Below are positions 31,508 to 63,413 of a stretch of DNA of 64,000 nucleotides, in pieces; position 1 is the first letter of the stretch, and every line of letters begins with the position of its first letter. Source of the stretch: Verrucomicrobiota bacterium (GTDB taxonomy: Bacteria; Verrucomicrobiota; Verrucomicrobiia; Limisphaerales; AAA164-E04); NCBI GenBank assembly GCA_047947115.1, contig CP170459.1:2432001-2496000 (forward strand), in the 5' to 3' direction. Both the position numbers and the translations under genes were made by a program. The notes beneath the pieces were generated by a model that searched no databases, was not told where the DNA came from, and was given only the letters and a program-made list of their open reading frames with translations.

Positions 31508-31530
31508 AAAGAGATGTCGCTGATTGCGCC

Positions 31531-31662
31531 ATCATCTTCATTATTGCCGGTAATCAATTTCGGCTTGCTTGTGCCGTGCATTTCAGAACGAAAATGGTAT
31601 TCGCTTTGAAATTCATGACTCATTCGGAATACGACAAAATGTCTTGGAAGAACGAACTATGA
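31531..31662 (+). pseudogene. higB: 3' remnant of higB toxin (copy in element C)
   Basis: Near-identical to 33550-33681 but lacks the 5' part and a start codon. Confidence 0.85.
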
Positions 31663-32054
31663 AAACTCAGACAACAACCAAGGTGCGAGCCCTTGATTCG
31701 GTTCCCAAGGATTATCCGAGTCTCTGTTCCGGATATCCCCCGCGCCCCATTCATGATGATCATGAATACGCTGAAGCCCAAAAAGCCATATTTGAATTGA
31801 TAGGCTTTGAAGAACAGTTTACTCCCGATCAATCCGACTATCTGGAGGCAGTCAGTACCTTCATTGAGCAATATGATCAACAAACGATAAGTTGGCCTCG
31901 GAGAAACCCGAAGTCCATCCTGAAGTATCTCATGGCTGAGCACGCTATGAGTGGCGCCGATCTGGCAAGATACCTTGGCATCAACGAATCGATGGGAGGA
32001 AAAATCTTGCGAGGGGAAAGAAATCTGACTGTTGAACACATCCGCTTTTCTTGA
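31659..32054 (+). pseudogene. higA: HigA antitoxin copy, C-terminally truncated
   Basis: Close paralog of 33678-34112 ending HIRFS* instead of HIRFLSSKFSVSPELFIA. Confidence 0.8.
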
Positions 32055-32193
32055 TGAAGAGTGAGACGTATTGAGAATGTGCAACAGTTGCTGCAGTGTG
32101 CGGTTTTGTGCGGCAAGCTGATAATTTGGCCGCTTTACTTGGATGATTTTTTGAGTGTTGAATAAAGTTGGTGAGTTAGGCCATTGTTGGATT

Positions 32194-32388
32194 GTGTCAA
32201 AAATAAGGTCATTCAGAATTTATTCAAGCTTGGCAGAGGAGAACCAAGCCGAGTATCGGCGTCGGTCCCGGATGTCTCCTCAAGAACGAATGAATGAATT
32301 TGCCGTTCTTCAAGAACGTGCCTGGGGGAATGATTGGAGGACCAAGCCAATGGACCGAATAGCAACTTGGGAAAAGGTGGATTGGTAG
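32194..32388 (+). CDS. Small hypothetical protein, putative partner of the downstream nucleotidyltransferase
   Basis: SSLAEENQAEY...MSPQERM; stop 3 nt before the next ATG; start uncertain (32155 or 32194). Confidence 0.55.
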   Translation: MSKIRSFRIYSSLAEENQAEYRRRSRMSPQERMNEFAVLQERAWGNDWRTKPMDRIATWEKVDW

Positions 32389-32391
32389 GGT

Positions 32392-32868
32392 ATGACCACG
32401 TTGACCGAAGATATGGTCGAGTTCTTGGGGTTGCTCAAAAAGCACGGTGTGGAGTTCGTTTTGGTGGGCGGTCATGCTGTGAATTATTATGGATACGTGC
32501 GGACAACTCAGGATATTGACCTACTCATTTACCCTTCTCCGAAAAATGCTCAGTGCATGATGGCTGCTCTAAGCGATTTTGGATTCGGAGACGCTGGAAT
32601 TCCGGTGTCACTTTTTGAATCGACAGGAAGTGCCATTCATCTGGGTAATGAACCCAACCGCATTGATTTACTGACAGCGCTGAAGGGGATGAGCAATGAG
32701 CAGATATTCAAAAACAAAAAGCGCATACACTTGGGTTCATTGGAACTGGATATTATCGATTTAAATGACCTGCTCCAGATTAAGCGGCAATCAAGCCCTC
32801 TCAAAGATCAGGCTGATGCAGAAGAGATTGAAATATCAAAACCTGATGGAGACTCATATGATAGATGA
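32392..32868 (+). CDS. Pol-beta-superfamily minimal nucleotidyltransferase
   Basis: VLVGGHAVNYYGYVRTTQDIDL (GG...DxD), RIDLL, K...KDQAD. Confidence 0.82.
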   Translation: MTTLTEDMVEFLGLLKKHGVEFVLVGGHAVNYYGYVRTTQDIDLLIYPSPKNAQCMMAALSDFGFGDAGIPVSLFESTGSAIHLGNEPNRIDLLTALKGMSNEQIFKNKKRIHLGSLELDIIDLNDLLQIKRQSSPLKDQADAEEIEISKPDGDSYDR

Positions 32869-33008
32869 TCCGATCGTTGCCGAAGATCGACAACATAGAG
32901 CAGTCATACTTAATGGATTTGATGGAGGGTGGTTAGATCTAACTTGTTTATGGGTACAGCCCGCCTCCGCTTAAAGCTCCGGCGAGGCAACTTTCGCGGT
33001 GAGAAAGT

Positions 33009-33034
33009 TGGTGGAGGCGTCGGGAGTTGAACCC
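33009..33034 (-). repeat. att site: copy of the tmRNA 3' end (25/26 identical)
   Basis: TGGTGGAGGCGtCGGGAGTTGAACCC versus 63055-63080. Confidence 0.9.
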
Positions 33035-33351
33035 TATAAGACCTTTCAAGACGAAGTATCCTTCCTTCGCATCCTTGCATGACTACAACACCTTACACGT
33101 TCATTCTCCAAAATCCACCATGCACCGTCTTGAACCATCATGAAAAAAATCTGTGCGGTTTTGTGCGGCAAATTTGGGAAGCTTTGGTTCAGATAGATCC
33201 AACCAACAGTTTTCGGTAAATTCTTATATGAGTGATCAAATGTTTGTTGGCGGGATCAAATCCATCTATTTGATTCGTCATTACTGATTCTCACTCGGGG
33301 AAGTCAAACATTGGCGAATTGGCGAATAGTCCAATATTGACTTTGAGATGA

Positions 33352-33681
33352 ATGCGGGACAAATTGTCCTTGTTGAGGATCATAACGGAAAAAGCACTCA
33401 AGGAATGGTCGTTGAAGCATGCCCGTGCGAAAGTATCTCTCGCAAACTGGGTTCGTGTCGTGAAACGCTCAAGTTGGAATACTTTGGTCGACATTCGTGC
33501 CACCTTTCCTTCAGCCGATCAGATATCTGTAGGCAGCGGACGGTCCGTCATCATCTTCAATATTGCCGGTAATCAATTTCGGCTTGTTTGTGCGGTGCAT
33601 TTTAGAACGAAAATGGTATTCGCTTTGAAATTTATGACACATTCAGAATACGACAAAATGTCTTGGAAGAACGAACTATGA
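33352..33681 (+). CDS. higB: Type II toxin HigB (RelE-like mRNA interferase)
   Basis: RIITEKALKEW...FPSAD...IFNIAGNQFRL...THSEYDK; real start may be TTG 33373. Confidence 0.92.
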   Translation: MRDKLSLLRIITEKALKEWSLKHARAKVSLANWVRVVKRSSWNTLVDIRATFPSADQISVGSGRSVIIFNIAGNQFRLVCAVHFRTKMVFALKFMTHSEYDKMSWKNEL

Positions 33682-34112
33682 AAACTCAGACAGCAACCAA
33701 GGTGCGAGCCTTTAATTCTGTTCCCAAGGATTATTCCTGCCTTTGTTCCGGATATCTTCCGCGTCCCATTCATGATGATCATGAATACGCTGAGGCCCAA
33801 AAAGCCATATTCGAATTGGTAGGTTTTGAAGAACAGTTAACTCCGGATCAAACTGACTATTTGGAGGCAGTTAGTACGTTCATTGAGCAATATGATCAGC
33901 AAACGGTAAGCTGGTCTAGGAGAAATCCGAAGTCCATCCTGAAGTATCTCATGGCAGAGCACGGTATGAGTGGTGCCGACCTGGCAAGATCTCTTGGCAT
34001 GAACGAATCGATGGGAGGCAAAATTTTGCGAGGGGAAAGAAATCTGACTGTTGAACACATTCGTTTTTTATCAAGCAAGTTTTCTGTTAGCCCTGAGCTC
34101 TTTATTGCCTGA
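33678..34112 (+). CDS. higA: Type II antitoxin HigA (HTH)
   Basis: ATGA overlap with higB; PRPIH...LKYLM...ILRGERNLT...F-x-V-SPELF. Confidence 0.92.
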   Translation: MKTQTATKVRAFNSVPKDYSCLCSGYLPRPIHDDHEYAEAQKAIFELVGFEEQLTPDQTDYLEAVSTFIEQYDQQTVSWSRRNPKSILKYLMAEHGMSGADLARSLGMNESMGGKILRGERNLTVEHIRFLSSKFSVSPELFIA

Positions 34113-34326
34113 GATCAGTTCTATTGAAAAAAGCTCCATAAACTTAAAATTGAGTAAGAATTCATCCGCTTTTCTTTATGATGAATGAGATAGATTGAGT
34201 ATGTGTAACAGTAGCAGGAGTGTGTGGTTTTTGTGCGGCAAGGTGAGTGATTTGATCTAACTCGTTGATGGATACAGCCCGCCTTCGCTTTAAGCTGCGG
34301 CGAGGCAAATTTCGCGGTGCGAAAGT

Positions 34327-34351
34327 TGGTGGAGGCGGCGGGAGTTGAACC
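34327..34351 (-). repeat. att site: exact 25-bp copy of the tmRNA 3' end
   Basis: TGGTGGAGGCGGCGGGAGTTGAACC identical to 63055-63079. Confidence 0.93.
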
Positions 34352-34850
34352 TGCTGCTTCGTGTTCGTTAACATTCGGGATGACGCACATTACTTTCTTT
34401 TTTACAACGTATTATGATTGTTTTCCTTAAAAGCCAGCACGAACCATTACGCAGTAAACGCGAAACATTTCGTGTCAAGTATTGTCAAGTGACCACCTTC
34501 GATGGATGATTATCGAATCTCCAAGAGTCGGTGTATTGCATCATCTTCACATACGAAAAGCAGCTTAATTTTTGTTGCGATGAATAAACAGGAACGACAG
34601 GATAGAAACGTTCCCCTGAATACGATGAGGGCAATAACAAAACAGAGGACCAGTAAGAGTCCGAAACCTCGGTTTTCAAAAACTTTATTTGATAGCATCA
34701 TCTTCCTTTTACTCGCACTAGCCTATGTTGTTGGAGCTTGATCAACGAGCTGAAATTGCCCCAATAATTCAGCCAGAGTTTGGGATTAATTCTCCCACTA
34801 CTCGACGGAATCGCCGAGATACTGTGCCTCTGAGCCGTTGGTTTTTAACC

Positions 34851-35900
34851 TTAATTTGTATTTTGAGGTACGACCCCAACGGCTCCTCCCCCAACACATC
34901 GCATGTCGCTCAAAGGACGAGTCGTTTGGTCGTGATAGTGCCGCACGCCGCGCTGCATCACCACTTGCACACGGCGATCCTTCGCGGTGGCTCGATAGAA
35001 GGCCGCGTTGAAGCCGACTCCCAAGGCGCTGAAAGCCCATTGCCCGGTTTCACCCGTGATGAAATCCCCCGTCACGCCGTGCTGGACGGGCCGCTGGCCG
35101 ACTTCAAACGAGAATGGCGGATTGCCATGGTAGTTGAAATCGACCGAGGTGCCCGGCCATGTCTCTTTGATATACCGTTCCAGCTCCGTTTCGAACGCAG
35201 CGCTGCTGTCATAGCGGAACTCCATTATCTTTTCCCAGTCCGCATCCCAACGCATCGCCCTGGGCATCTCATGACCGTGCTGCTCCTTGAACTTGGTCTG
35301 ACAATGATCGCACCAGCAACCATAAGGCGGCCCGAATCCTTGATCGACCATGTCGAGGTGAAAGCCGTTGATGCCATACGTCATCATCTCTTCTAGCAAA
35401 CCCTTCACGTAGCCGATGTAAGGCGAATTGAAACAGACGCGCTCGATGGGATTGCCCTCCTTGTCGCGCATGCGCCAGTCTGGATGCTCACGCAAGGTGT
35501 GTGTCGGATATTGCAAGACACAATAGGCGATCACCGGCATCTGATGTTTCTTCGCTTCCTCAACCGTTTCGCGCAGGACATCACGTTCACCCAAGCCAGG
35601 CGCCTTGGGCTGCAGTCTGGAGTCGTAGTACGTGTAGACGCCATCGCGAGCCCAGATGACCATGTAGTCGCAATGCGCGGCGGCGGCGCTCTCAATACAC
35701 TCGCGTCCGTTGAATCGGGCCACGTATCCCACGTCGGCCATGTCGCTGCCGAACTGCGCGCCAGTGGGCCCGGTTTCGATGCCGACCAAGGCGCGCTCGA
35801 ACCAGGGCGTCTTCTGAGCAGCTAGTGGTGTCATCACAACGCTGTGTAGTGCTAGAGCGAAGACGAAGAGTCGTTTGGTGGTCATCGGAAGGAATGGCAT
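34851..35900 (-). pseudogene. Secreted glycoside-hydrolase-like protein (GHL6/alpha-fucosidase-like TIM barrel), probably 3'-truncated
   Basis: Signal peptide, RDVLRETVE, HPDW, CFNSPY, GFHLDM, CWCDHCQ; breaks into unrelated AT-rich sequence after RPLSDMR (~34897). Confidence 0.65.
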
Positions 35901-35903
35901 TGA

Positions 35904-37940: not shown

Positions 37941-38038
37941 GAAAATGCTGGTAGGAGTCTCAACGAACCGTCTAGGCAGTCTTGGAGCGTTTGGCAATAT
38001 GAAGAAGATCGGCGGCTGGCTGCAGGAAGGGCATTTGG

Positions 38039-38298
38039 CTAGCGGGATGTAAATCTTTGACGTTGTAAGATTGAGGTGGCGTTGGCCGGATCACGGGCCA
38101 TCGTTTCGATGGCCTGGGGGAGGCTGGGGTAGCCTGCGTGACCCAAAGGTGCCAGCAAGGCGCACCGGATCAGGGCCAACGCTCGCACGGCGTTGGGCGT
38201 TTACAGATGGCGATGAATTGTTGTGCGAAGGGAAACGCCACGGATTCCGCTTCGATCTCGCATAGGCTTAGATGGCGTTCTTTGATGCGGCCGTGGCC
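38039..38298 (-). pseudogene. ISAs1-family transposase relic with internal deletion
   Basis: Manual translation GHGRIKERHLSLCEIEAESVAFPFAQQFIAI, then in another frame NAVRALALIRCALL...LPQAIETMARDP...*. Confidence 0.55.
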
Positions 38299-38299
38299 G

Positions 38300-39619: not shown

Positions 39620-39677
39620 TATGATTTGTTTTCGAATGTCACGGTTGGTGTTCGATTCTATTACTGCCACGCGTTGC

Positions 39678-41003: not shown

Positions 41004-41070
41004 GGTTGTTTGCTGCTAAGTACTGTCTCTAAACAATGTCGTGAAGAACACTCGAACAAGGTGTGGTGGC

Positions 41071-44000
41071 TCATTCCGTGAAAAGGATCTGGCCCCAGTT
41101 CTTCGGTTCCATCTTCAGCTCGAAGACTTCATCGTTCACCAGCCCGGTTGCCTGGTTGTTCCAGTAGGTGCGGAGGAGGGTATCGTCGCCGGCGGGCGTG
41201 CCGTGGGTGGCCCCGAAATCGCCGGAGAGCTTCATCCCTGCGAAAGGCTTCAGGCCAAGCGTGGAGAGGGGCACCCCGATCTCGACCACGCACCACCGAT
41301 CGCCCTTCTTTACCTCGATCTTCGCGTCCTGCAGCTCCACGACGCTGTCCATCACGTAATTGCTGACCACGCCGGAGCTGAAGGTCCTGGGGTTCTTCTG
41401 CTCGGCGATCTTGCGATACAGCACCGCCGTCGGCTTGCCCCGGAAATTTCCGATGGAGAGGCGGAGATCGCCCTTGGCCGCCTCGGCGCGGTTCTCATCG
41501 GCCTCGGGATCGGTGCCGAGCTGGAAATCCACCGTATCGCCCCGGGCGTACATGAATACCGGCGAGTCCGCACCGTTGGTCCACGGCGTCGCATCCGCCA
41601 CGCGCCAGCCGAGGTAAAGAAAGGTTTCGTCCCAGGCAATGGCCGATCGGACTTCGGCATCATCCTGTTTCTTGAAAACGATTTCCTTGCCAAAATCCTT
41701 CGCAAGATCGCCCGTGAAGACCGGCGTCTGCTTCCGGACCTCGCAGCGGCGCAGGCCGGCGCTGCGCTGCACCAGCTCGCTGCGAATCGCCTCGGCGAGC
41801 TTCAGGTCTTTCTCCTCGAGGCGGAGCGTGCCGGAGCCGAGCGGCTTGACGGTTTCGAGACCGACGACTTCGACATTCCAGTTCGCAGTCTTGCCGGCGG
41901 TCACGTAGAGCTTGCCGTCCTTGCCCTGGGTGATGCTGCCGCCGAAATCCTCGCCCCCTTCGCCGGACGGCACGTGATCGAGCACTGCCCCCGGCACTGC
42001 CCTTTCGGGCCATTGCACTTTCGAGAAGTCGCCCTGGAACAGGCGCGTCAGGTAGAACCCGTCGCGCGTGAGCATGTGCCACTCGCCGACGTTCGAGTTG
42101 ATCACCCACGCGCTGCCGACGGGATCGGGCAACGTGACGCTGCCCACGGTGCCGAAGGCCCCGCGGATGAGGCCGGCCTGCGGCCCCGGTGCGTTGTGCG
42201 AGCCGTGCACGCCATGGAACGTGTTCGGATAGCTCCACCGCAGCTTGCCGGAGGCCACGTCGTAGCAGTTGAAGAGCTGCTTCTCGGAGTCGCACGATAG
42301 CACGAGGTCGTTAGCTGGCGACGGCATCGGCCCTTCGAGAGGAGGCAGGAAGTGCAGGTTCGTGGTGTCCCACTTCGGGGCGCCGGAGGGAGTGAAGCCG
42401 GCCAGCCTGATGCGGGCGCCACGGTCCCACCGGTTGGCCTTCGGGTCGAGCACGCCCGCGTAGAGCGTGAGGTCGGTGTTCAGCCCCAACGACCAGTTGA
42501 GGTAGCCATTGAACGACATCAGCATCGGCACCACGGTCTTCTCCCCGTCCTGCTTCTGCTGGTCGCCGTTCTCATCGGACCAGAACACGGTGGTCTTGTC
42601 CTTGTCGTTGCGGCCGAAGGTCGCCCGGAGGGCGTAGGCGCCGTCGCCGAGGCGTTCCCAGACGTGCGTGTCGGTGCCGAGCGTGGCCGCGAGGTAGAGC
42701 TTGCCATTCGTGCCGCGGCAGAAGCGGGCGAAGTTGTGGAACAGGCTGTTCCAGTCCCGGCCCTCTCCGTTCTCAAAGGTGCCGAGGCATTGGGCAAGCC
42801 CGGTGGCGGGATCGAGCCGCCATTCGCAGGCTTCGCCGACCATCAGGTTCGGATCGTCCGGGTTGATCGCTCCGCCGCTGGCACCATAGTGAGTGGAGCC
42901 GAAGAACTCGCGGACGAACGTGCCGGTCTGGTTGTTCCACACGCTGAACCGTTTTGGGAAGAAACCGGCTTCAGCCACCCACAGGTTTCCTTCACGGTCA
43001 ACTGCCAGTCCGTGGATGTTGATCATACCCTCCTTGACCCAGGGCCCGGTGCGAGGCCTGCCGCCCTGCTTCCCGATCGCCAGGGCAGGCTTGCCGTCGG
43101 GCGTAAACACCTTGATCTGCGCGCTCGGCTCGCCTTCGCCCACATAGATTCGACCGCCAGCATCGACCGCAAGGCACTTGGCGTCGATCAGTCGGGTCAG
43201 CACCGGCTTTACCGCGCCGGTTGCGGGGTCCACGGCGGCCACCGAATCGGTGCCGGAAAGGACGTAGAGGAGCGAGTCGCTCACCGCGGCGATGCCGCTG
43301 GGCGCGGGCACGGGGATGGTCTTGAGCACTTTGCCGTTCTCTGCGTCGAGTACGGCGACGAAATCGCTTTTCATAACGGCAACTTCCTGCGGGAAGGAAG
43401 CCTCGATCTTGCGGCGCACCGCGGCCTGCAGCTTCAGCGAAGCCATTTCGGCCCCGCCGTCGACGAGCGTCTTGTCGTTGAGCATGCCGTTGATGGTCCC
43501 GGCAACGGCGTCGCGGACGTCCGGCGTGTAGTAGTTGGGCGCAGCGAGCGCCTTGTCTTCCGGCTCGGTGCCAGCCAGCCAGGCTGCGGCACGCTCGCGG
43601 ACGTTCTTGTCGACCTTCTCCCAGATCGCCTTGCCGATACCGTCGCCCGCGGCGGAGAGCTTGGTGAGGAACGCGCGCCAATTGGTTACATCGCTCCTGC
43701 GGAAATTGTAGGAGCGGAAGGTGAGGTAGAGTTTGCCGTTGCGGGCCGCCATCGCCTCAGCCTTGTCGGGCATGCCGGGCTGGTCCTTCCAGAGATCCTT
43801 CACGAAGAGATCTCTGAATCCGCCATCGTTTGCGTCGTCCCAGTTCTGATAGGAGCCGGTGGCAGTGTCGAGGCGGAAGAGCACCTGCGGGCTGCCGGAG
43901 CTGTTGCCGACATAGACGAGGTCGCCCTCAACTGCCAGCAGTTCGGCGCCGCCGAAGCCGCCGTATTTGTGTTTCCAGCGGACGTTGCCGTCGAGGTCGC

Positions 44001-45201
44001 AGGCGAGCAGGCCGCGGCCGGCCTCGGCGGCTCCCCAGCCAAGGTAAACGGAATCGCCTTGTGCGGCACTGGTCCAGGGCACGCCGAGGTCGCCGCCCCA
44101 GTTCGAGGTGGGGCCGCTGTGCCAGGGTGCGTTGCCGCTGTTGCCCGCCCAGCCTCGCAGGCGCAGGCCGATGCCCGTGTGCCAGATGGCCTGCCAGGTG
44201 TAGTCGCCGGCGGGCAGCACCGCGCCGGGCGTGCGCCAGATCGGCGTGGCCAGGCCGTCCCACGTCACCGTGTGCTCGCCCTTGGCCATCGGCTCGGCAT
44301 TGAGGAGATTCCGCACCACGACGCCGTCGGCGTTGCGGAGGAGCATCGATACGTAGCCGTCCTCGGGCATGGTGAACTTGATCGGCTTGAAGCCCTTCGG
44401 CCCCTCGCTGAGGGCTGACCAGTCAACCACCGGCTGACCTTGCTGCAGCGACACCGGCAACTTGCGGCCGTCGGCCAGGTGCAGCATCCGGGGCTTCATC
44501 TTCCCGGAGCGCTCGAAGGTCGCCGGGCCGAACTGGTCGAGCTTGCGCGTGCCCCAATAGGTACGTTCCGGCACCACTCCGGGCATGAAACAGTCCCATG
44601 CATGCAGACTCCAGCCAAACGGGAGGACGAACATCACTCTAATCTCGCTGCCGGGTCCGAGGGTGACACCTTCGCTTGTAATCATCTTCAGGGGAATCCG
44701 GATCTCCTGCGTATAGCCTTTGCCGTCCGGGTTGTTGAGAAACACCTGCTCCGCGCCCATCTGCTTCGGGTCACGCGCGCTCTGAAGAGGTGGCTCGAAA
44801 TTGAGCGTGATCGATTCCTTCCCGTCCAGGTCGCGCCCGCAGGTCAGGTTGGGCTGAAGCTGCTGCGGTGTGCCGGGCGCCGTGAGCATGTGCATCCGCA
44901 GCGTGCTGCCGGCGGGGCGTCGGTCGTTATGACGGAAGCTGCCTGTGACGCGCGCAAGCACGTAGAGATTATCCTGGTCGTACATCGCATGAAGCCACGC
45001 GCTGTGGCGGTCACGCTGCTCCTCCACGTTCTCGCAGGCGAAGATGCCACCGGTGAGGTCCCAGTCGTCGAATCTGCCGTCGATGACGACCTTGCCCGGC
45101 GCCGGCAACACGGAAATGCCGTAGTTCTCGGTTTGCGTGCCCGCAAATGCGGGCATCGCAAGCAGGCCGCAGACGGTGAGGAGGTTGAAAATAGTTTTCA
45201 T
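41071..45201 (-). CDS. Large secreted protein: CBM9/DOMON-like, FlgD-Ig, beta-propeller, CBM9/DOMON-like
   Basis: VIDGRFDDWD, GVVVRNLL...GEHTVTWDG...GDYTW, NHL-like AVDAGGRIYV/IKVFTPDG repeats; paralog of 55136-59266. Confidence 0.8.
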   Translation of the reverse strand: MKTIFNLLTVCGLLAMPAFAGTQTENYGISVLPAPGKVVIDGRFDDWDLTGGIFACENVEEQRDRHSAWLHAMYDQDNLYVLARVTGSFRHNDRRPAGSTLRMHMLTAPGTPQQLQPNLTCGRDLDGKESITLNFEPPLQSARDPKQMGAEQVFLNNPDGKGYTQEIRIPLKMITSEGVTLGPGSEIRVMFVLPFGWSLHAWDCFMPGVVPERTYWGTRKLDQFGPATFERSGKMKPRMLHLADGRKLPVSLQQGQPVVDWSALSEGPKGFKPIKFTMPEDGYVSMLLRNADGVVVRNLLNAEPMAKGEHTVTWDGLATPIWRTPGAVLPAGDYTWQAIWHTGIGLRLRGWAGNSGNAPWHSGPTSNWGGDLGVPWTSAAQGDSVYLGWGAAEAGRGLLACDLDGNVRWKHKYGGFGGAELLAVEGDLVYVGNSSGSPQVLFRLDTATGSYQNWDDANDGGFRDLFVKDLWKDQPGMPDKAEAMAARNGKLYLTFRSYNFRRSDVTNWRAFLTKLSAAGDGIGKAIWEKVDKNVRERAAAWLAGTEPEDKALAAPNYYTPDVRDAVAGTINGMLNDKTLVDGGAEMASLKLQAAVRRKIEASFPQEVAVMKSDFVAVLDAENGKVLKTIPVPAPSGIAAVSDSLLYVLSGTDSVAAVDPATGAVKPVLTRLIDAKCLAVDAGGRIYVGEGEPSAQIKVFTPDGKPALAIGKQGGRPRTGPWVKEGMINIHGLAVDREGNLWVAEAGFFPKRFSVWNNQTGTFVREFFGSTHYGASGGAINPDDPNLMVGEACEWRLDPATGLAQCLGTFENGEGRDWNSLFHNFARFCRGTNGKLYLAATLGTDTHVWERLGDGAYALRATFGRNDKDKTTVFWSDENGDQQKQDGEKTVVPMLMSFNGYLNWSLGLNTDLTLYAGVLDPKANRWDRGARIRLAGFTPSGAPKWDTTNLHFLPPLEGPMPSPANDLVLSCDSEKQLFNCYDVASGKLRWSYPNTFHGVHGSHNAPGPQAGLIRGAFGTVGSVTLPDPVGSAWVINSNVGEWHMLTRDGFYLTRLFQGDFSKVQWPERAVPGAVLDHVPSGEGGEDFGGSITQGKDGKLYVTAGKTANWNVEVVGLETVKPLGSGTLRLEEKDLKLAEAIRSELVQRSAGLRRCEVRKQTPVFTGDLAKDFGKEIVFKKQDDAEVRSAIAWDETFLYLGWRVADATPWTNGADSPVFMYARGDTVDFQLGTDPEADENRAEAAKGDLRLSIGNFRGKPTAVLYRKIAEQKNPRTFSSGVVSNYVMDSVVELQDAKIEVKKGDRWCVVEIGVPLSTLGLKPFAGMKLSGDFGATHGTPAGDDTLLRTYWNNQATGLVNDEVFELKMEPKNWGQILFTE

Positions 45202-45224
45202 AGAAGGTCTCACTGAGTTATGAA

Positions 45225-47180: not shown

Positions 47181-47190
47181 TGTCTGTTTT

Positions 47191-47218: not shown

Positions 47219-47221
47219 GGC

Positions 47222-48456: not shown

Positions 48457-48502
48457 GTCAGATGGAGAGTTTTTTGAGTTGGGTCTGGCGGGCGCGGCGC
48501 GA

Positions 48503-49603: not shown

Positions 49604-49756
49604 GTTCTTGGTTCTTTGGATTGCGTGTGCGCTTGGCCAAGCGCCTCCACTTCTTCGCGGTCTGCGAACTGCACATCGGCCCCTGTCGCGAATACAAGCA
49701 GTTGCCGCGCGAGGAAAAGACAGCAGGACGATGAGAAGCCTGAGGCTGGGTTTCAT
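49600..49756 (-). pseudogene. Collapsed relic of a DUF1592-family gene
   Basis: Signal-peptide start MKPSLRLLIVLLS joined out of frame to DUF1585-like FLARQLLVFATGADVQFADREEVE. Confidence 0.5.
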
Positions 49757-49777
49757 GGCGGTGGATAAATGTGGGTA

Positions 49778-51028: not shown

Positions 51029-51065
51029 CTTTCTGATTTCAGTTTTTTAATTCACCTTGCGTGGA

Positions 51066-52442: not shown

Positions 52443-52451
52443 AAGTTCGTG

Positions 52452-54881: not shown

Positions 54882-55024
54882 AGGAAAGCAGACTAGGGTT
54901 TGTGAGCGCGGCGCGCCGGAACGGCTGAGCTGGTGTCTGGGTTGCTGCCGAGCAGCTCGGGGAGGCCATGATAGCATATGAATGAGCAGTGTGGAACGTG
55001 CGGCGCGAAGCCGCGAGTGAACAT

Positions 55025-55052
55025 GCGGCTGATGCCCTGCCGTTTGGGTTGT
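55025..55052. repeat. 28-bp direct repeat (27/28) of 48386-48413
   Basis: GCGGCTGATGCCCTG(C/G)CGTTTGGGTTGT; both encode QPKRQGISR on the minus strand. Confidence 0.8.
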
Positions 55053-55135
55053 TCGTTCATCATTCCTGTGACTCATGGGTGAAGAATGGTTGGTTCCATG
55101 GGCAAGGTTAATGGGTGGAGTGCACTCGGTGATCG

Positions 55136-58100
55136 TCACGGCTGGAACGTGATCTCGCCCCAGTTCGCCGGTTCCATTTTCAGCTCGAAGACTTCGTCGT
55201 TGACGATGCCCGTGGCCTGGTTGTTCCAGTGGGTGCGCAGGGCGGTGTCGGTTCCGGATTTGTCGCCGTGTGTGGCGCCAAAGTCGCCGCGCAGCGCCAA
55301 GCCGTCCGTGACTTTCAGCCCGAGCGCCGCCAGCGGAATCGCGGATTCGACCACGTAGCGCTTGTCCTCCACCTTCACGGATACCTTGGCCTCGGCCAGC
55401 ACCTCAACGCTGTCCATCACGTATTCCTTCACGACGCCGGAGCTGAAGGTCTTGGGCTTCTTCTCGTCCGCGACCTTGCGATAGACCACGGCCGTGGGCT
55501 GGCCTTTGAAGTTGCCGATGGACAGGCGCAGGTCGCCCTTCACGGGTTCGCCGCGTTTCTTGTCGGCTGCGGGGTCGGTCCCGAGCTGCAGGTCCACGGT
55601 GTCGCCGCGGGCGTAGAGGAACTCGGGCGCGTCCGCGCCGTTGACCCACGGCGTGTCGTCCTCCACCTCCCAGCCGACGTAGAGGTTGGCCTCATCCCGG
55701 GCCATGGCGACCCGGACCCGCGTGCCCGCCTGCTTCTCGAACGCCTGCTTCTCGGGTTCCTCGAAGTCCTTGAAGTCTGCGTCAAGGTTCCCGGTGAACG
55801 CCACCGTGGCCTTCTGGACCATGTACTTCTTGTTGCCTTCCGCGACCTGCAACTGCTTCTCGCGAAACGTCTGGGCCGTCTTCACGTCGTCGGCGCCCAT
55901 CGCCACCTTGCCGCCGGGGATCTCCTGGATCGTCTCCAGTCCTGTGACCTCGATATTCCAGAGCCCGGTCTTGCCGGCCTGGATGTAGACCTTGCCGTCC
56001 TTGCCCTGGCGCAGGGAGCCGCCGAAATCCTCGCCGCCGAGGCCCGGGGGCACGTTGTCGAGGATGGCGCCCGGCACCGCCTGGTCCGGCCACTGGGTCT
56101 TGAACGCGTCGCCCTGGAAGAGGCGCGTGAGGTAGAAGCCGTCCTCGGTCAGCACATGCCACTCGCCGATGTTGCCGTTGATGCCCCAGATGCCGCCGAC
56201 CGGCTTGGGCAGCACCGCGTTGCCGACCAGTCCGAAGGCGCCCCGGATGAGGCCGACCTCCGGCGCTGGCGCCTTATGCGAGCCATGCACGCCGGAGAAG
56301 GTGTTGGGGTACTTCCAGAGCAGGCGTCCGTCGACCGTGTCGTAGCACTCGAAGTTTTGTTCACCCACCGCGACCAGCTTGCGGTTGTCCGGTGTGGATA
56401 GCGCGCCGCCGTCAAAACCGGCAACCTTGCGGGGGCCGGCAACGTCATACCGGGGCGCGCCGCATTTCGTGAAGTCCGCAACCTTGAACTGCAGCCCGTT
56501 GGCGTAGAGGGTCAGATCGCTGTTCATGTTGAGCGACCAGTGCAGATAGCCGGTCATCGTCAGCGCCGCCGGATGCGTCGCCAGTTCGTCGGGCTGCTGC
56601 TGTTCGTCGCCGTTCGCGTCGGCCCAGAAGACCGTCTTCTTCTCTTTGGGGTTGGGTACGATGCTCCCGCGCAGCGCGAACTTCGCGTCGCCCAGCCGCT
56701 CGCGGATGGACAGGCCCGTGTTGCTACTGAATGTCACCAGGTAGAGCTTGCCGTTGCTGCCTTCGGCATAGCGGGCAACCCCGGCATAGTGGTTCTCGAA
56801 GGTCCCCAGGCAAACATCGCGCCCGGTGGCCGGGTCGATGCGCCACTCGCAGCCCTCCCCCGCCATGATGTTCGGGTCGCGCGGGTTGATCGCGCCACCA
56901 CTGGCGCCGTAGTGCGTGGGGCCGAAAAATTCCCTGAGGAAGGCGCCCTCTTTCTTGTCCGCCCCCGCCCGGGCCTGCCACACACTGAAGCGTTGCGGCG
57001 TCTGGTTCGCCTCGGCCACCCAGAGCTTGCCTTCCTTGTCCACCACCAGCCCCAGCGGATTAAGCACGCCGTCCTGGACAAATGCCCCGAGGGCCGGACG
57101 CCCGCCCTTGCGGCCGATCGCGCCGGCGGGCTTCCCGTCGGCGGTGAACACCAGCACCTGCTGGGTCTTGCCGCCCACGCTCACGTAGAGCCGGCCCTGG
57201 TCGTCGGCGGTCACGCCAGAGGCGTCCGGCAGGTCCTTGATCACGGTCTTCACGGTGCCGGCGGCGGGATCGACCGCCAGGATGTTGCGGCGATCGCTGA
57301 CCACATAGACCAGCGTGTCGTTCACGGCCCGCACGAAGCGGGGTTTATCCACATCGATGAGCTTGATGACCTTGCTGGTTTGCGCGTCCAGGACGGCAAG
57401 GAAGTTCATCTTCATCGGGGTCATGTCGGCCGCGAAGGCCTTCTCGATGAACCGGCGGTTCGCCTGGGCGAGGTCGTCCGGGGACAGCTTGGCGGCGTCG
57501 GGCACGAGCGTCGTGCTGTTGAGCAAACCGTTCAGGACGCTCACCACGTTGTCACGCACGTCCGGCGTGTAGTAATTCGGCGCACCGAGGGCTTCGTCGA
57601 TGCCGACTTGAGGGTTCTGGTCGAACCACCAGGTCAGGCGCTGTTTCTGCCAGTCGCCGAGCTTCTCGCGGATCGTCCTGGCGAGGCCGTCGTCTTTGTG
57701 GATCTTTTGAATCAGCGGTTTCCAGTCCCCCACGTCGGCGCGGCGGAAGGAGGCTGCCGAACAGGCGATGTAGAGCTTCCCGTTCCTGGCGTCCATGCCC
57801 TCGATGCGATCGGGCATGCCCGCGGGGTCCTCCCAGATGGCGCTGACCTGCAGATCGGGCGTGTCCTTGCCTTTCCAGGAACTGTAGTTGCCAGTCTTGG
57901 CGTCGAGCCGGTAGATCAGGTTGGCCCACTTGTTGACGTAAACAATGCCGCCGTCCACGCCCATGATCTCGGCGCCGCCCATGCCGCCGTGGGTGTGCTT
58001 CCATTGGACCTTGCCCTGCAGATCGCAGGCCACCACTGCTTTTCCGGCTTCCGCACCGGTCCAGCCGAGATAGACCTTTTCACCGTCGGTGGTGCAGGCG

Positions 58101-59266
58101 AACGGCACGCCGTGATCGCCGCCCCAGTTGGAGGTGAGCGAGCTGTCCCAGGGCGCGCTGCCGCCGTTGCTGGCCCAGCCGCGCAGGCGCAGGCCGATGC
58201 CCTTGTGCGCGATGGCCTTCCAGGTGAAATCGCCCGCCGCCACCGGCTGGCCGGGCGTGCGCCAGTAGGGGGTGGTCAGGCCGTCCCACTGGACCTCGTG
58301 CTCGCCCTTGGCGAAGAAGGCGCAGTTCAGAAGCTGGCGGGCGACCGAGCCATCGGGGGCAAAGAGGTTCAGCGACACGTAGCCGTCGAAGGGCATGGCG
58401 AAGCGGATCGGCTTGAACCCGGGCAGCTCCTTGCTCTGGACCAGCCCCGTCCAGTTCACGACCGGCAACCCTGCCTCCATCGTCACGGCGAACTCGCGGC
58501 CGTCGGAGAGACGGATGGACCGGGGCTGCAGCTTGCCCGTCTTCTCGAGTGTGGCATAACCCCAGCACGTTGGGCCCTGGAAGGTGAAGACGCGGTCGAT
58601 CTGCACGCCCGGCTTGAAGAGATCCTTCATGGTGATGCGGCCAGACTGGCCTGCCGTGAAGTTCGGCTCCACCGTCATGACCATCCGGGCACCGGGCTTG
58701 AGCGGCTGTTGGTCCGCGGTCAGCAGCTTCCAGGGAACGGCGATTTCCTGCACGTAACCCTTGCCGTCGGCATCCGCTGCGAACGTCTGCTGCGCGCCCT
58801 CCGCCCTGGTGTCGGGGATGCTGCCTTCGTTGAGCCCCTTGCCGAATTGGACGCTCACCACATCCCCGCCTTCGCGGTACTTCCAGCAGTCCCAATGGGC
58901 CGTGCGCTCCTTGCCCGCCGCGTCGGTCGTGACCGTGCGGAACTGCAGGCAGTCGCCCTGGAAGCCCATGTCGCCGTTCACCCCGGGGTTGTTGAGCGGG
59001 GTCGGATCCTTCCAGCGCGCCAGCACGTACAGGTTCTGACTGTCGTACATCACGTGGAACCATTGGCCGTACTGGTCGCGCAGATTCTCGACGTCGCTGC
59101 AGGCGAAAATCCCTCCGGTCAGATCCCAGTCATCGAACTTTCCGTCCACGACGACCTTGCCCGGCGCAGGCAGAATCTGCATGTTCAGGTTCTCGGTTTC
59201 GGTGGCCCGGGCGGCCGGAAGGGCGGCCAAGGCGAGAACGAGTGCGATCAGTATCTTGCTGTTCAT
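55136..59266 (-). CDS. Large secreted protein, paralog of 41071-45201
   Basis: Shared LPAPGKVV-x-DG-x-FDDWDLTGGIFAC, SNWGGD, APNYYTPDVRD, GVHGSH, GGEDFGGS, WNNQATG-x-VNDEVFELKMEP; start ATG 59266. Confidence 0.82.
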   Translation of the reverse strand: MNSKILIALVLALAALPAARATETENLNMQILPAPGKVVVDGKFDDWDLTGGIFACSDVENLRDQYGQWFHVMYDSQNLYVLARWKDPTPLNNPGVNGDMGFQGDCLQFRTVTTDAAGKERTAHWDCWKYREGGDVVSVQFGKGLNEGSIPDTRAEGAQQTFAADADGKGYVQEIAVPWKLLTADQQPLKPGARMVMTVEPNFTAGQSGRITMKDLFKPGVQIDRVFTFQGPTCWGYATLEKTGKLQPRSIRLSDGREFAVTMEAGLPVVNWTGLVQSKELPGFKPIRFAMPFDGYVSLNLFAPDGSVARQLLNCAFFAKGEHEVQWDGLTTPYWRTPGQPVAAGDFTWKAIAHKGIGLRLRGWASNGGSAPWDSSLTSNWGGDHGVPFACTTDGEKVYLGWTGAEAGKAVVACDLQGKVQWKHTHGGMGGAEIMGVDGGIVYVNKWANLIYRLDAKTGNYSSWKGKDTPDLQVSAIWEDPAGMPDRIEGMDARNGKLYIACSAASFRRADVGDWKPLIQKIHKDDGLARTIREKLGDWQKQRLTWWFDQNPQVGIDEALGAPNYYTPDVRDNVVSVLNGLLNSTTLVPDAAKLSPDDLAQANRRFIEKAFAADMTPMKMNFLAVLDAQTSKVIKLIDVDKPRFVRAVNDTLVYVVSDRRNILAVDPAAGTVKTVIKDLPDASGVTADDQGRLYVSVGGKTQQVLVFTADGKPAGAIGRKGGRPALGAFVQDGVLNPLGLVVDKEGKLWVAEANQTPQRFSVWQARAGADKKEGAFLREFFGPTHYGASGGAINPRDPNIMAGEGCEWRIDPATGRDVCLGTFENHYAGVARYAEGSNGKLYLVTFSSNTGLSIRERLGDAKFALRGSIVPNPKEKKTVFWADANGDEQQQPDELATHPAALTMTGYLHWSLNMNSDLTLYANGLQFKVADFTKCGAPRYDVAGPRKVAGFDGGALSTPDNRKLVAVGEQNFECYDTVDGRLLWKYPNTFSGVHGSHKAPAPEVGLIRGAFGLVGNAVLPKPVGGIWGINGNIGEWHVLTEDGFYLTRLFQGDAFKTQWPDQAVPGAILDNVPPGLGGEDFGGSLRQGKDGKVYIQAGKTGLWNIEVTGLETIQEIPGGKVAMGADDVKTAQTFREKQLQVAEGNKKYMVQKATVAFTGNLDADFKDFEEPEKQAFEKQAGTRVRVAMARDEANLYVGWEVEDDTPWVNGADAPEFLYARGDTVDLQLGTDPAADKKRGEPVKGDLRLSIGNFKGQPTAVVYRKVADEKKPKTFSSGVVKEYVMDSVEVLAEAKVSVKVEDKRYVVESAIPLAALGLKVTDGLALRGDFGATHGDKSGTDTALRTHWNNQATGIVNDEVFELKMEPANWGEITFQP

Positions 59267-59305
59267 TTCTTTTACTTTCGGTTCATGTTGCAATGTCTTT
59301 CCCGC

Positions 59306-60922
59306 TTACTTTTTAGCCGCTTCCGACTGAAAAACGGCACGTCCCCAATGCGGACCGCTCAGAAAGAATGCCGGCGGCGGAGGGGTTGGAGAAGCCGGTG
59401 GATTCTGGTTGGTCACATCAACCAACTGCCCAAAGCAGATTCGTCCGTCGGCATCGCTCCAATGCACCGTCCACAACGCCCCCATGACGTCGCCTGCGCG
59501 CGGGGGATCGCTCTCGCAGTGGAGCAGCCGCCAGGGAATCGCGTATTCCAGCGTGTAGCCGAGTCCATCCGCGTCCTTCTGGAACGCGCCCTTCCATCCT
59601 GCGGGGGGTGCGGCGGGAGATTCCAATTCAAAGCTGTGCTGCAAACCGAGGCTCGCCCGCCCGGACTTGGCATCGTGCCACAGGATCAGGCTCGTCACCC
59701 GCTCGTTGGTGGAATCCGCAAGCAGCTCACGGCTGGGATTCGCGGGCCGGAATATAGGGTTGATCCCCTTGAGCGGCCAGCCCAGCTGGCGATCCGTGGA
59801 GAGACGCACGATGACGCTGCCTCCGGCAAACTGGAAGCCTTCGCGGGACGCATTGCGCATCGGTTCGGGGTCGCCCACATGCGCAGCCACATACAAGTGC
59901 GTCGCATCATACATCATCCCTCCCTCGACGAAATACGTCGCCGCGTAAGGCGGCTCGCACGCGCTCTTGAAAAAGGTAGCGCGGTTCCATTCCGTGAGCT
60001 GGCCATCCACCGACACCTCGTTCGTCGCACGCGTCACCGCGACTGACTCCACGGCGCTGCGGTTGTAGAGCGGGCCACCGTGAGTTATCGGCGTCGTTCG
60101 CGGCATCCGCCGGATGAACCGGTCCTCGACAAACGCCGCCGGAGCCAGTTCACCCGCGGCCGAGCATCGCAGCCCGCTGCCGGCCTTCAGTTCCCGGGCT
60201 GCCCCTGACGCGGTAGCCTCCGTCCGCACTAGGCCGTCGTAAACCTGCACGCGCTCGTCGCCGCTCTGACTGACGCTCACGCCGAACTCGGTGCCGAGGT
60301 CGATGACCCGCATCTGCGCCGTTTCGACCACAAACCCCGAGCGCCCCTTCGGCATTCTCACCACCACCGTGCCAGACGTGAGCCGGAGGTGTTGAGCGCC
60401 CAGCCATTCCCCGACCGCCGGTCCTTCGACAAGCACTTCAACACCGTTAGCTCCTGCCAGCGAAATTAATCCATTCTGCAGGCTCCAACCGCCTCTCCCG
60501 ACGCGATCGGACACCCGCACTTCCCGCCCGTCCGCCCAGCGCCCGCGCAGAGTCTCGCGAACCGCAAAGCCCGGTTCCAAGTCCGCTCCGGGCTGCCGGG
60601 GAGCGTCACGCAGCGAGAGCCATACCGCGGCCGCCAACCCGAACATCGCCGCCGCCGCTGCCCACGGCAGACTCCAGCGCCACCAGGGGGACGCCGAGGC
60701 ACGTGTTGGTTGCACTGCGCGGAGAAAGGGCAGCTTGCACTCCAGACCGCGAAACTGCCAGGCCAGACCGGCGTGCAGTTCCAGGTAGGAGAGAAAGAAC
60801 CGCTGCGCCTCGTCGCTCGTCAGCAACTCGCGTTCGAGCGCTTCGCGTTCCGCCAAGCGCAGGTTCCCCGCCACGTAAGCATCGGCCCAATCCCGGAGCC
60901 TGGCGGCTTGGTCCGAGTTCAT
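59306..60922 (-). CDS. FecR-family anti-sigma/sensor with C-terminal CBM9/DOMON-like domain
   Basis: LERELL...YLELHAGL, TM helix, VEGPA, VIDLGTEFGV, then VDGQLTEW...MYDATHLY...YTLEYAIPW; ATGA overlap with sigma. Confidence 0.85.
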   Translation of the reverse strand: MNSDQAARLRDWADAYVAGNLRLAEREALERELLTSDEAQRFFLSYLELHAGLAWQFRGLECKLPFLRAVQPTRASASPWWRWSLPWAAAAAMFGLAAAVWLSLRDAPRQPGADLEPGFAVRETLRGRWADGREVRVSDRVGRGGWSLQNGLISLAGANGVEVLVEGPAVGEWLGAQHLRLTSGTVVVRMPKGRSGFVVETAQMRVIDLGTEFGVSVSQSGDERVQVYDGLVRTEATASGAARELKAGSGLRCSAAGELAPAAFVEDRFIRRMPRTTPITHGGPLYNRSAVESVAVTRATNEVSVDGQLTEWNRATFFKSACEPPYAATYFVEGGMMYDATHLYVAAHVGDPEPMRNASREGFQFAGGSVIVRLSTDRQLGWPLKGINPIFRPANPSRELLADSTNERVTSLILWHDAKSGRASLGLQHSFELESPAAPPAGWKGAFQKDADGLGYTLEYAIPWRLLHCESDPPRAGDVMGALWTVHWSDADGRICFGQLVDVTNQNPPASPTPPPPAFFLSGPHWGRAVFQSEAAKK

Positions 60923-61446
60923 GATTTGCTTCCCTCCGCAAGGACTCTCAACATGCAGTCGTGCAGGATGGCCCGGATCCGCCGCAGGCTCTTGTAGAGG
61001 GCGTTGACCGAGCGTCCGGCTCGAGCCGCCGTGCTCTTGAGCGGCCCTTCCCGGTAGCACTCCTCCACCAGAGCCCGTTGGTGCGGCGGAAGCTGGTTCA
61101 GGCAGTGCTGCAGCGCCCGATGGCACTCCTCCGAAAATCGCCCCCCCGCCTCCCGGTCTGTCAAGAGCAGTTCCGCCACTTCCTCGCTCAGCAGGGTGTA
61201 CCGGCTGGATTCGCGGCGGCGGAAATTGCGCACATGGTTGTGGGCAATCGCGCAGGCCCAACTCGCAAACTCGCCCTTTTCCGGGTCGTATTTCGCCCGC
61301 TCCTGCCACAGCGTGAGGCAAGTCTGCTGAAACAAGTCTTCAACATCCTCGCGCCGCGGCACGAGGGTGAACAAGAAGCGGTAAACCCTGCTCTGGTTGG
61401 CCAGCAGCAGGGTGATGAAGCGGTCGTCAGGCGGTTCGGTAGTCAT
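60919..61446 (-). CDS. ECF RNA polymerase sigma factor
   Basis: EDLFQQT...FASWACAIA, LPPHQR, ALYKSLRRIR. Confidence 0.9.
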   Translation of the reverse strand: MTTEPPDDRFITLLLANQSRVYRFLFTLVPRREDVEDLFQQTCLTLWQERAKYDPEKGEFASWACAIAHNHVRNFRRRESSRYTLLSEEVAELLLTDREAGGRFSEECHRALQHCLNQLPPHQRALVEECYREGPLKSTAARAGRSVNALYKSLRRIRAILHDCMLRVLAEGSKS

Positions 61447-61743
61447 CTTTATAAGTGATTGGTCGCACTAGCGGAAAAGTGGCCCAGGAAAACGCATCAT
61501 GTCGCCCGCGGAGCCGGAATGGCGAAAACTTACAGGCCTCGATATATCTTAATCTTCGACCTGTTGGGCGATCTCGTGTGCTCGCGATCCGAGCCTCGCG
61601 AACGCGAGACGAAGTCAGTCATTGCCAGCGGCGCGCCAGAGCGCTATCACCGCCGAAATTCACCAACTACCGTTTCGCCATGCGCCAGCTCACTTGCCTG
61701 CCTTTTGTCCTGGTGGTCTTGTTGAAGATTCGGAATTGCCAGT

Positions 61744-62949
61744 TTATTGATTGGCCGATGGAAAAATGTCAAACCACCTCTTGGCTTCATCTTTTCCAAC
61801 TAATTCTAGGTAATGCTGTTTGATTATTTGTACTGAGTTTCCTGATTCGTAGGCAACTTTGGGTAAGTCGGTTGTCATCGCAACCCGGTATGAAATGTAG
61901 CTATGCCTCAATGCATTGTGTTTCCATCTGAGGCGAGCAGAATTAGAGGTTCTCAAAAAGCATTTTGTTAACACGCTCTCCGATCGATTCCATATTTTTC
62001 CCGTGGTTTTCATATTGGGGGTTAACCATGCAGCCAAGTTTTCAGAAATCGGCACAACTCTTCGGGCTGCCGTTTTGGCAATACCATGGTCGATGGTTAT
62101 CATTCTGCGTTCGATATGCACATTTTCCCAATTCAAGCGCATGGTTTCAGCAGTGCGGATGCCACAAAAGGCTCCTAGAAGTAAAACAGGCAAGATTTGG
62201 GCATCCGCGTGTGTTAAGAGTGCTTGGATTTCTTCAGGTGAAAATATTTCTATTGATCCATGCACTTTTTTTCTAAGTGCGATTCGAGAGACTTCACTAT
62301 GGTCTTGCTGCAAATATCCGCGCGATTTTCCGAATTCAAAAAGAGTGAGAATACTTTGAAGGTAGTTGTTGTGACTGCGATTCGAAAGGTTCAGGTTGTT
62401 GAGAAACTCTTCAATATCCGCAGAGGTGATCGAGGTTATTTGGCACACAAATCGACTAGCAAATCGGCCGCACCTGGATCGAAGGTCCTTGAGATATTTC
62501 TCGCTTAAGCTTTGCTGCGCTTTTGCACTCAACATTTCTTCCAGCACATCTTGAACTGTCTTTTTGGGCAGTTCCGTTGGGTGATGTTTCAAGTAGAATT
62601 CAATAGCACTAGAAAGGGGGATACCTTGCAGCTTCCTAACAGCGTCCGAATATTCCTCTGCTACCACATCGAGCGGTTTTTGCACTTCTTTGATCGAGTT
62701 GCATGCACGCGTGTAGATGAGTTTACCAATGTTGTCTATGCTGGTAGACTGGGCCTCTCCTCGACTCAGTTCCGTTGCGATAGTCTCAGCTTCTGATTTA
62801 GCGCGTTTGAAGTCGGCAAATGCCTTGCGTTTGCGAGTTTTTCCAATACGCCAATCGACTGAGTAGACCTTGCCGGAATGTGTTAGGACTTGATAAATTT
62901 TGACAACGGTTCGAGATCGTTTGATCGAAACTGGAAACTTCACCTTCAC
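61744..62949 (-). CDS. Tyrosine recombinase/integrase of island A
   Basis: Catalytic R (GIRTAE), K (AKT), HNALRHS, GNS, Y (KQHY); 105 bp from the tmRNA 3' end. Confidence 0.93.
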   Translation of the reverse strand: MKVKFPVSIKRSRTVVKIYQVLTHSGKVYSVDWRIGKTRKRKAFADFKRAKSEAETIATELSRGEAQSTSIDNIGKLIYTRACNSIKEVQKPLDVVAEEYSDAVRKLQGIPLSSAIEFYLKHHPTELPKKTVQDVLEEMLSAKAQQSLSEKYLKDLRSRCGRFASRFVCQITSITSADIEEFLNNLNLSNRSHNNYLQSILTLFEFGKSRGYLQQDHSEVSRIALRKKVHGSIEIFSPEEIQALLTHADAQILPVLLLGAFCGIRTAETMRLNWENVHIERRMITIDHGIAKTAARRVVPISENLAAWLTPNMKTTGKIWNRSESVLTKCFLRTSNSARLRWKHNALRHSYISYRVAMTTDLPKVAYESGNSVQIIKQHYLELVGKDEAKRWFDIFPSANQ

Positions 62950-62956
62950 TAGGTGA

Positions 62957-62984
62957 AGTGTAAGAGAATAGGAAGAAATGTCAA
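62957..62984 (-). promoter_or_regulatory. Putative sigma70 promoter of the integrase, overlapping arm-like repeats
   Basis: TTGACA (62984-79), 16 nt, TACACT (62962-57); GTG start 7 nt after the -10. Confidence 0.5.
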
Positions 62985-63054
62985 GTATTTGTCAAGTTTG
63001 ATGGTGGTTTTATTTTGTGTGGTGTGTAAAGCATTTGTGATCAATTAGTAAGAG

Positions 63055-63413
63055 TGGTGGAGGCGGCGGGAGTTGAACCCGCGTCCTAAGCAAACTTGCC
63101 GTGAAGCTTCTACATGCTTGTCCGGGCATTGGGTGTCTGTGAAGTGATGACGACCCGGCGCGAGTCACTTCACATAGTCCGCATGAAATCAGTTTCGGTC
63201 CCTTGCGCGCGGTCTCCGCTCCGAACCTAACCTGCTGTCAGCGTTTCTTCCACCCAGCAGGTGTCAGCAGAGAAACGTCGCGGAGCTTTATGCCGCGAGA
63301 GCTAATTCATTGTTAGCATTTATTGCTATTGGTCCGATTTTTTACGAGGCCAACGAACCATCCTCGGCATGCTACCTCAGACGTATCTACCCAGTCGAAA
63401 CCAGTACGCCTCC
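63055..63413 (-). ncRNA. ssrA: tmRNA
   Basis: 5' GGAGGCGUACUGGUUUCGAC; 3' GCGGGUUCAACUCCCGCCGCCUCCACCA; tag frame ANNELALAA* at 63317-63288; 359 nt. Confidence 0.95.

Follow-up and report, generated by a model that had tools for sequence, protein, structure and literature searches.

In tandem accretion, an integrating newcomer settles next to the target gene and remnants of earlier elements are pushed outward (PMC5704250, PMC7563491). In streptococci, cis-mobilizable elements (CIMEs), which are integrase-less, span 1.2-13 kb, and have kept their attL and attR attachment (att) sites, are stacked behind an integrase-bearing element (PMC5704250, PMC7563491). Dehalococcoides islands at ssrA, the transfer-messenger RNA (tmRNA) gene, also lie in tandem, are bounded by repeats of the ssrA 3′ end with a T-loop crossover, and include 15 elements without an integration module that were proposed as CIMEs (PMC3146451). 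Across the islands catalogued by Islander, no target is more enriched than tmRNA, islands are known to occur in tandem, and targets switch often (PMC4383910). In the attP site of phage mv4, each of the two arms ends in a pair of neighboring 11-bp arm sites arranged as direct repeats (bioRxiv 10.1101/2023.11.06.565760). Here, we describe a stack of elements at ssrA in a Verrucomicrobiota bacterium (GenBank assembly GCA_047947115.1), in a stretch of 64,000 nucleotides (contig CP170459.1, positions 2,432,001 to 2,496,000, hereafter “the window”) that is part of a single-contig genome (G000) of 6.08 Mb and 51% GC. An earlier reading of the window (hereafter “the original prediction”) had proposed a tandem array of three elements with two different arm-like repeat codes.

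Taken together, our results make it probable that this locus is a stack built on the ssrA core, in which one island with its own integrase and arm pairs (island A) stands before older, integrase-less modules (B, C, and D) of an integrase that is now absent. Island A was likely inserted last, next to ssrA and ahead of the three modules. Its integrase, of the lambda type, likely binds ACTTGACA pairs as arm sites, and a different integrase, no longer present, likely used the CCGCACA pairs of B, C, and D in this way. In a circularized element, the two pairs would lie on either side of the core as P1P2 and P′1P′2, and strand exchange would probably take place in the T-loop. Occupancy of the near pair by integrase would hide the −35 box of its own gene, and since the pair overlaps this box, binding would bring repression. 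B, C, and D may be regarded as CIME-like, probably retained through toxin–antitoxin genes and reshuffled by recombination between conserved ends. Overall, the locus represents tandem accretion of an integrase island onto CIME-like remnants, an already-known design in a little-studied group, which fits because the order runs from A (intact) through B (att-complete, without an integrase) to C and D (decayed). The cassette-like order of cargo previously suggested is thus ordinary tandem accretion rather than an integron-like system, and the separators seen are copies of the ssrA 3′ end with arms.

The tmRNA 3′ end is present three times in the window, as originally noted: at ssrA itself, as an identical copy at the A/B junction (att2), and as a copy with one mismatch at the B/C junction (att3). 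Misassembly does not account for att2, att3, or the repeat motif at 32097, because contigs of other studies bridge them: att2 is spanned without differences by contigs of runs X4 and X7, att3 by X4 and X10, and the 32097 motif by X4, X7, and X10. The runs containing region B come from seawater, marsh, lagoon, estuary, marine, and freshwater metagenomes of 9 studies. Among the contigs listed, none bridged the ssrA-A junction; a metagenome locus (L055) does show ssrA followed by a ACTTGACA pair and the start of an A-like integrase. A loose end of X10 at 34327 looks like the start of an L050-type integrase island (L050 is a metagenome locus described below), and we rejected a placement of such an island directly behind A in X10, as the contig placement may rest on the 25-bp core alone.

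Island A (34352-63054, 28.7 kb) has the structure of a tDNA island, with an intact target gene at one end and a displaced 3′ fragment in the same orientation at the other. Both repeat codes of the original prediction were recovered, i.e., TGTCAAGT-N2/3-TGTCAAGT near both ends of A and TGTGYGG-N3/4-TGTGYGG near both ends of B, each in 0 of 100 window shuffles. The whole genome contains two TGTCAAGT pairs, one per end of A, and its TGTGYGG pairs are confined to three in the window (32097, 33152, and 34221) and two others at the ends of a tRNA-Tyr island. The distal repeats do lie ~120 bp inside att, the distance to the GTTC of the att copy being 122 bp for A and 119 bp for B. These pairs are real and far above chance.

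We then considered the pairs across the integrase family, homologues of integrase A being found in 60 of 401 class genomes. A total of 39 homologous loci were examined, 30 with a detectable T-arm upstream and 9 without a T-arm match. A period-11 repeat ≤90 nt after the tRNA or tmRNA end was observed in 25 of these 30 loci, compared to 2 of 149 in-gene control windows. When 13 genomes were each searched with their own word, using exact patterns on draft assemblies, 33 matches were obtained: 19 with period 11, an integrase being within 1.5 kb in 18 (13 of these by selection), and 14 with period 10, none beside an integrase and 12 standing 85 or 122 bp before a tRNA or tmRNA fragment. Five other complete islands, each with both ends on one contig, carry the same word and the same target at both ends. 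In G000, three further islands are each bounded on both sides by a word of their own, with period 11/11. Island A follows the family layout (period 11 near, period 10 far, 122 bp). Words vary within the family (TCCTGACA, TACTGACA, CGTGACA, TCGGACA, CGGGACA, ACTTGACA, and CCGCACA), and several integrase lineages with different words use ssrA. The overall layout is as expected for a heterobivalent integrase and as in phage mv4: each arm carries a pair of direct repeats whose distance from the core is fixed. In one comparison, the span between pairs was 231 bp in both B and the metagenome module L051, 230 bp in the CCGCACA tRNA-Tyr island, and 203 bp in A. Because the pairs stand behind the tRNA or tmRNA at 25 of 30 loci and delimit five islands on both sides, they are likely arm-type integrase sites. 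Their family-wide position, the use of one word at both ends, and a predicted arm-binding N-terminal domain are all in line with arm-type behavior. Two far-end pairs, at L107 (G187) and L130 (G021), have the word of a neighboring family member, the former before an ssrA rather than a tRNA-Pro fragment and the latter before a tRNA rather than an ssrA fragment, which suggests target switching with the word retained.

Integrase A itself has an intact catalytic set (R265, K292, N345, R348, N371, and Y380, in agreement with the family consensus) and scores far under the Xer and IntI model cutoffs (39 on TIGR02249, the integron integrase model, against a cutoff of 265). With its R-K-N-R-N-Y set, it is a tyrosine recombinase that is neither Xer nor an integron integrase. 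Its AlphaFold model (pLDDT 92) begins with a sheet of four strands plus a helix, followed by core-binding and catalytic domains, and was aligned by Foldseek to lambda Int across 411 columns; residues 1-75 reached 0.93 to the PF09003 and PF02920 clusters in Atlas, which we take as a lead only. In the family alignment (A3, excluding L057, L058, L060, and L092, all <340 aa, and L025), Asn takes the place of the first catalytic His in all 37 members and of the second in 33 of them. Upstream of the gene, the near pair overlaps a TTGACA-16-TACACT box, with 2 such sites found versus 0.2 expected.

Element B (33035-34326, 1292 bp, 43% GC) contains higB and a higA-like gene only. It has kept both attL and attR (att2, att3, and pairs at both ends) and has no recombinase or transfer genes, as expected for a CIME. 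A parent carrying an integrase together with B-type ends was not found in genome, phylum, metagenome, or viral-contig searches. The word at 34258-34270 is IHF-like. A search with the B far-end pattern yielded 1 locus in genome contigs and 6 in metagenomes, of which L050, L051, L053, and L054 are near-identical, so that four of the six count as one. L051 is a 1.4-kb ssrA module with DUF433 cargo and B-like ends (far 98%, near 83%), and L052 (Phd-PIN cargo) and L055 (a nucleotidyltransferase module) have far ends 68-71% identical to those of B; no full integrase gene lies inside the L051, L052, or L055 modules. The only match in genome contigs (L038) was rejected as a member of the B family, since its ~54% identity to the B arm is the same as that of A versus B. 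At L038:6000-6240, an ssrA copy lies between a TGTCCCCA pair and two oppositely oriented TGTGTGG pairs that are separated by 70 bp. In another genome of the same bacterial family (G018), copies of the ssrA 3′ end are preceded by far arms of ~170 bp, nine in all and near-identical (L031-L035, at C1:5.58-5.60, 6.61-6.63, and 3.94-3.95 Mb), most carrying a TTTGCCAA-N3-TTTGCCAA pair and separating 2-15-kb modules at three chromosomal places. No A3-family integrase was found within loci L031-L035, and these modules are a second integrase-less family with its own word.

The original prediction considered C as a third element with the same motif as B. The motif is indeed present at 32097, but C has this one pair only, and the region is made of fused remnants C and D. 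Unlike a CIME with attL and attR, C in this strain lacks both an ssrA copy at the far side and a repeat pair at the near end. The DNA to the right of the 32097 pair is 92% identical to L051 and 86% to G007, and the DNA to its left is 81% identical to the near-end inner flank of B, beyond which the D copy of higBA (31527-32049) is 91% identical to that of B. In L051, the C-type inner flank is followed by the pair, a B-type far arm, and then an att copy, and a contig of run X3 (from a study that may include the source of the genome) has the same join of the C inner flank to a B-type far end; a D-like copy in run X10 retains the full higA end. Period 10 was rejected as proof that 32097 is a far-end pair, as the near-end pair of the congener G001 also has period 10. 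Since the period is not decisive, the reading of this pair rests on its flanks. In the simplest reading of these alignments, a deletion between the C far pair and the D near pair likely removed a fourth att copy, i.e., C and D would have fused when adjacent pairs recombined. A candidate fourth att near 32233 was dropped, as it falls inside the small open reading frame (ORF) of C and is not an ssrA copy. With C and D counted separately, the array once comprised at least four elements.

Table 1 Features of the ssrA locus, ordered from ssrA outward (positions in the window).
Feature	Position	Strand	Remarks
ssrA (tmRNA)	63055-63413	-	last ~25 bp are the attachment core common to the elements
A near-end pair, ACTTGACA-N3-ACTTGACA, period 11	62979-62997	-	second copy holds a TTGACA −35-like box before the integrase gene
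Tyrosine integrase, 401 aa, first gene of A	61744-62949	-	PF00589 above cutoff
A cargo	34851-61446	-	62% GC vs 51% for the genome
A far-end pair, ACTTGACA-N2-ACTTGACA, period 10	34473-34490	-	
att2, A/B junction	34327-34351	-	25-bp copy of the ssrA 3′ end, identical
B near-end hairpin-rich trailer	34272-34326	-	only 2 copies in the genome
B near-end IHF-like word	34258-34270	-	
B near-end pair, CCGCACA-N4-CCACACA	34221-34240	-	
higA-like HTH gene	33678-34112	+	
higB (PF09907)	33352-33681	+	
B far-end pair, CCGCACA-N3-CCGCACA, period 10	33152-33170	-	
att3, B/C junction	33009-33034	-	matches the ssrA 3′ end over 26 bp with one mismatch
C near end, second trailer copy	32924-33008	-	88% to that of B; no pair after it
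C cargo: small ORF and DUF2204-like nucleotidyltransferase	~32227-32388 and 32392-32868	+	
Hybrid pair	32097-32115	-	no att copy beside it; right flank is C far-end inner, left flank B-type near-end inner
Remnant D, second higBA copy	31527-32096	+	higB 5′ end cut, higA 3′ end shortened in this strain

Next, we searched for an integrase using the CCGCACA code. The CCGCACA integrases found adjoin tRNA-Tyr or tRNA-Leu and cluster apart from integrase A (SH-aLRT 95) in a quick IQ-TREE phylogeny from which L057, L058, and L060 (<300 aa stop to stop) were omitted, the clade also holding other words. Homologues of the tRNA-Tyr integrase occur in 9 of 401 order genomes, G000 among them, and each adjoins a tRNA-Tyr, -Leu, or -Val gene. 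Outside G000, a family-wide search with the CCGCACA pattern returned 7 matches, roughly as many as the reversed control gave, among which only L133 lies at a tRNA with an integrase, and L135 is beside tRNA-Val. In G000, the 14-kb tRNA-Tyr island (L086, C1:341637-355704) has CCGCACA pairs at both ends and a duplication of the whole tRNA. Its integrase is probably inactive, because Ser replaces the first catalytic Arg and the ATG is out of frame relative to the G004 homologue. This island also includes three near-identical 419-aa ORFs, probably transposases of insertion sequences (IS), and at its far end a second, 5′-truncated integrase in reverse orientation. The earlier proposal that two integrase lineages share one att core is therefore sustained in part: many lineages with different words do use ssrA, but no CCGCACA-code integrase was found there.

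Several observations weigh against a stack of A before orphaned modules. A CCGCACA-pair integrase at ssrA was found in 0 of 401 phylum genomes and in no viral contig searched with three patterns. L055, which is IS-interrupted, combines a ACTTGACA near end with a CCGCACA far end, and in L050 and L054 an integrase-less module adjoins ssrA with an intact-integrase island behind it, the opposite of the order in the window. The arm-site component is affected as well: the far-end pair was not found in 5 of the 13 genomes searched with exact patterns on draft assemblies, a tRNA-Thr island at 4.3 kb in G000 has no clear pair, words and clades do not correspond one-to-one in the quick tree, and no Pfam arm-binding family was detected in 37 family members. 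Lastly, no circle junctions or attP-type loose ends were seen among the metagenome contigs listed, contigs being prone to drop rare forms.

Alternatively, B-type modules may be live non-autonomous cassettes that a CCGCACA helper integrase, acting in trans, excises from and inserts at ssrA, with cargo swapped between conserved ends. This would be consistent with ends that are conserved while cargo differs, with core-to-pair spacings that are equal in B and L051 (88 and 143 bp in each), with the ssrA-proximal position of the L050/L054 module, and with the body of B in the congener G001, which is 96% identical to that of the window compared to 84-86% for nearby core DNA. Yet the helper integrase at ssrA was not found in the searches above, the resident CCGCACA integrase has the defects already described, near-end pairs are degenerate in L051 and G001 and absent in C, and contigs contained no circles. 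The G001 copy, ~3 kb from tRNA-Arg in the same orientation, moreover has degenerate pairs and has lost both cores. We thus consider this alternative unlikely, and it is similarly doubtful that B, L051, L052, and L055 form an undescribed family of 1.3-1.9-kb toxin–antitoxin cassettes inserted at ssrA in trans by a CCGCACA integrase. If they did, a 7-8-bp arm word and the attP span would identify the integrase responsible for each cassette, and one tmRNA core would serve several orthogonal integrases.

Another possibility is that integrase A, or another GACA-code ssrA integrase, moves B via the common core with relaxed arm needs, either together with A or alone (cis-mobilization). Co-transfer of CIMEs with integrative and conjugative elements has been reported (PMC5704250), the cores here are identical or nearly so, the far-end spacing of B (119 bp) is near the 122 bp of A and other GACA islands, and L055 couples an A-type near end with a CCGCACA far end. 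We regard cis-mobilization as quite improbable, since the B far arm is ~52% identical to that of A, which is the background level, att3 has a mismatch, and the attP span of B differs from that of A by 28 bp. Finally, it is very improbable that the pairs are promoter −35 boxes, or sites of a repressor, an excisionase, or a host factor, rather than integrase arm sites: the A word does contain TTGACA and overlaps a good sigma-70 match, and sites of recombination directionality factors (RDFs) are direct repeats one helical turn apart (bioRxiv 10.1101/784983), but homologous words deviate from TTGACA (CGTGACA, TCGGACA, CCGCACA), the same word recurs at the far end with a constant spacing to the core, and no obvious excisionase ORF was seen at the A and B ends (read by eye only).

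The cargo of island A encodes an ECF sigma factor (TIGR02989) and a FecR-domain protein, which lead the cargo (59306-61446), a DUF1552/DUF1592 cluster, and enolase-superfamily, lactonase, esterase, GDSL, and truncated GHL6 proteins. It also includes two paralogous ~1380-aa beta-propeller proteins (PQQ/NHL-like, 41071-45213 and 55136-59293), 14 kb apart, with DNA blocks 72-82% alike. No relaxase, conjugation, or phage families were identified by Pfam among the 15 island A proteins scanned; oriT was not searched. Beyond the stack, tRNA-Arg(CCG) at 27816-27892 faces ssrA, and the interval between them is therefore a variable region, with other content in G001. An IS3-family element at 28762-30288, with a 99.8% identical copy at G000:3754120, appears to split a gene (pieces at 27949-28776 and 30283-30666), and positions 30750-31049 hold a piece of a repeated element that is 84% identical to two other sites in the genome.

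Arm words of the integrase A family and ssrA modules with only toxin–antitoxin genes in Verrucomicrobia were not found reported in the open-access literature searched. For this widespread, apparently uncharacterized integrase family, probably of Verrucomicrobiota, these results provide a rule: a period-11 pair marks the integrase end, and where the att duplications of an island are short, its far end is recognizable by a period-10 pair at 85 or 122 bp from the T-loop. With this rule, island borders and integrase-less modules can be mapped even in fragmented genomes, including B-type modules that Islander would miss, as its filters need an integrase and ≥2 kb (PMC4383910). Since words differ within the family, it is also a natural source of integrase/arm combinations for tests of binding.

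Compared to described systems, island A resembles phage mv4 and lambda-type heterobivalent integrases in its three-domain integrase, its tRNA-like 3′ end target, and an attP of ~215-240 bp. Unlike mv4, it has no phage genes, its target is ssrA, Asn mostly replaces the two catalytic His residues across the family, and its arm sites are predicted. As in KplE1 intS (PMC2951348), the integrase promoter overlaps attL arm sites beside the target gene; unlike for the autorepressed intS, no RDF was identified here, and repression would follow from the overlap only. Like the Dehalococcoides ssrA islands, the elements are in tandem, delimited by ssrA 3′ repeats, and some are integrase-less, whereas the Dehalococcoides islands use a serine recombinase (DsiB) module and carry dehalogenase cargo, and no code of arm repeats was seen in their description (PMC3146451). 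In contrast to the streptococcal case, Pfam detected neither a relaxase nor conjugation genes on A, the cargo of B-type modules is toxin–antitoxin-like throughout, and L050 and L054 depart from the rule that the CIME is the most distant element. As for streptococcal CIMEs, however, the most decayed elements in the window are those farthest from the target gene.

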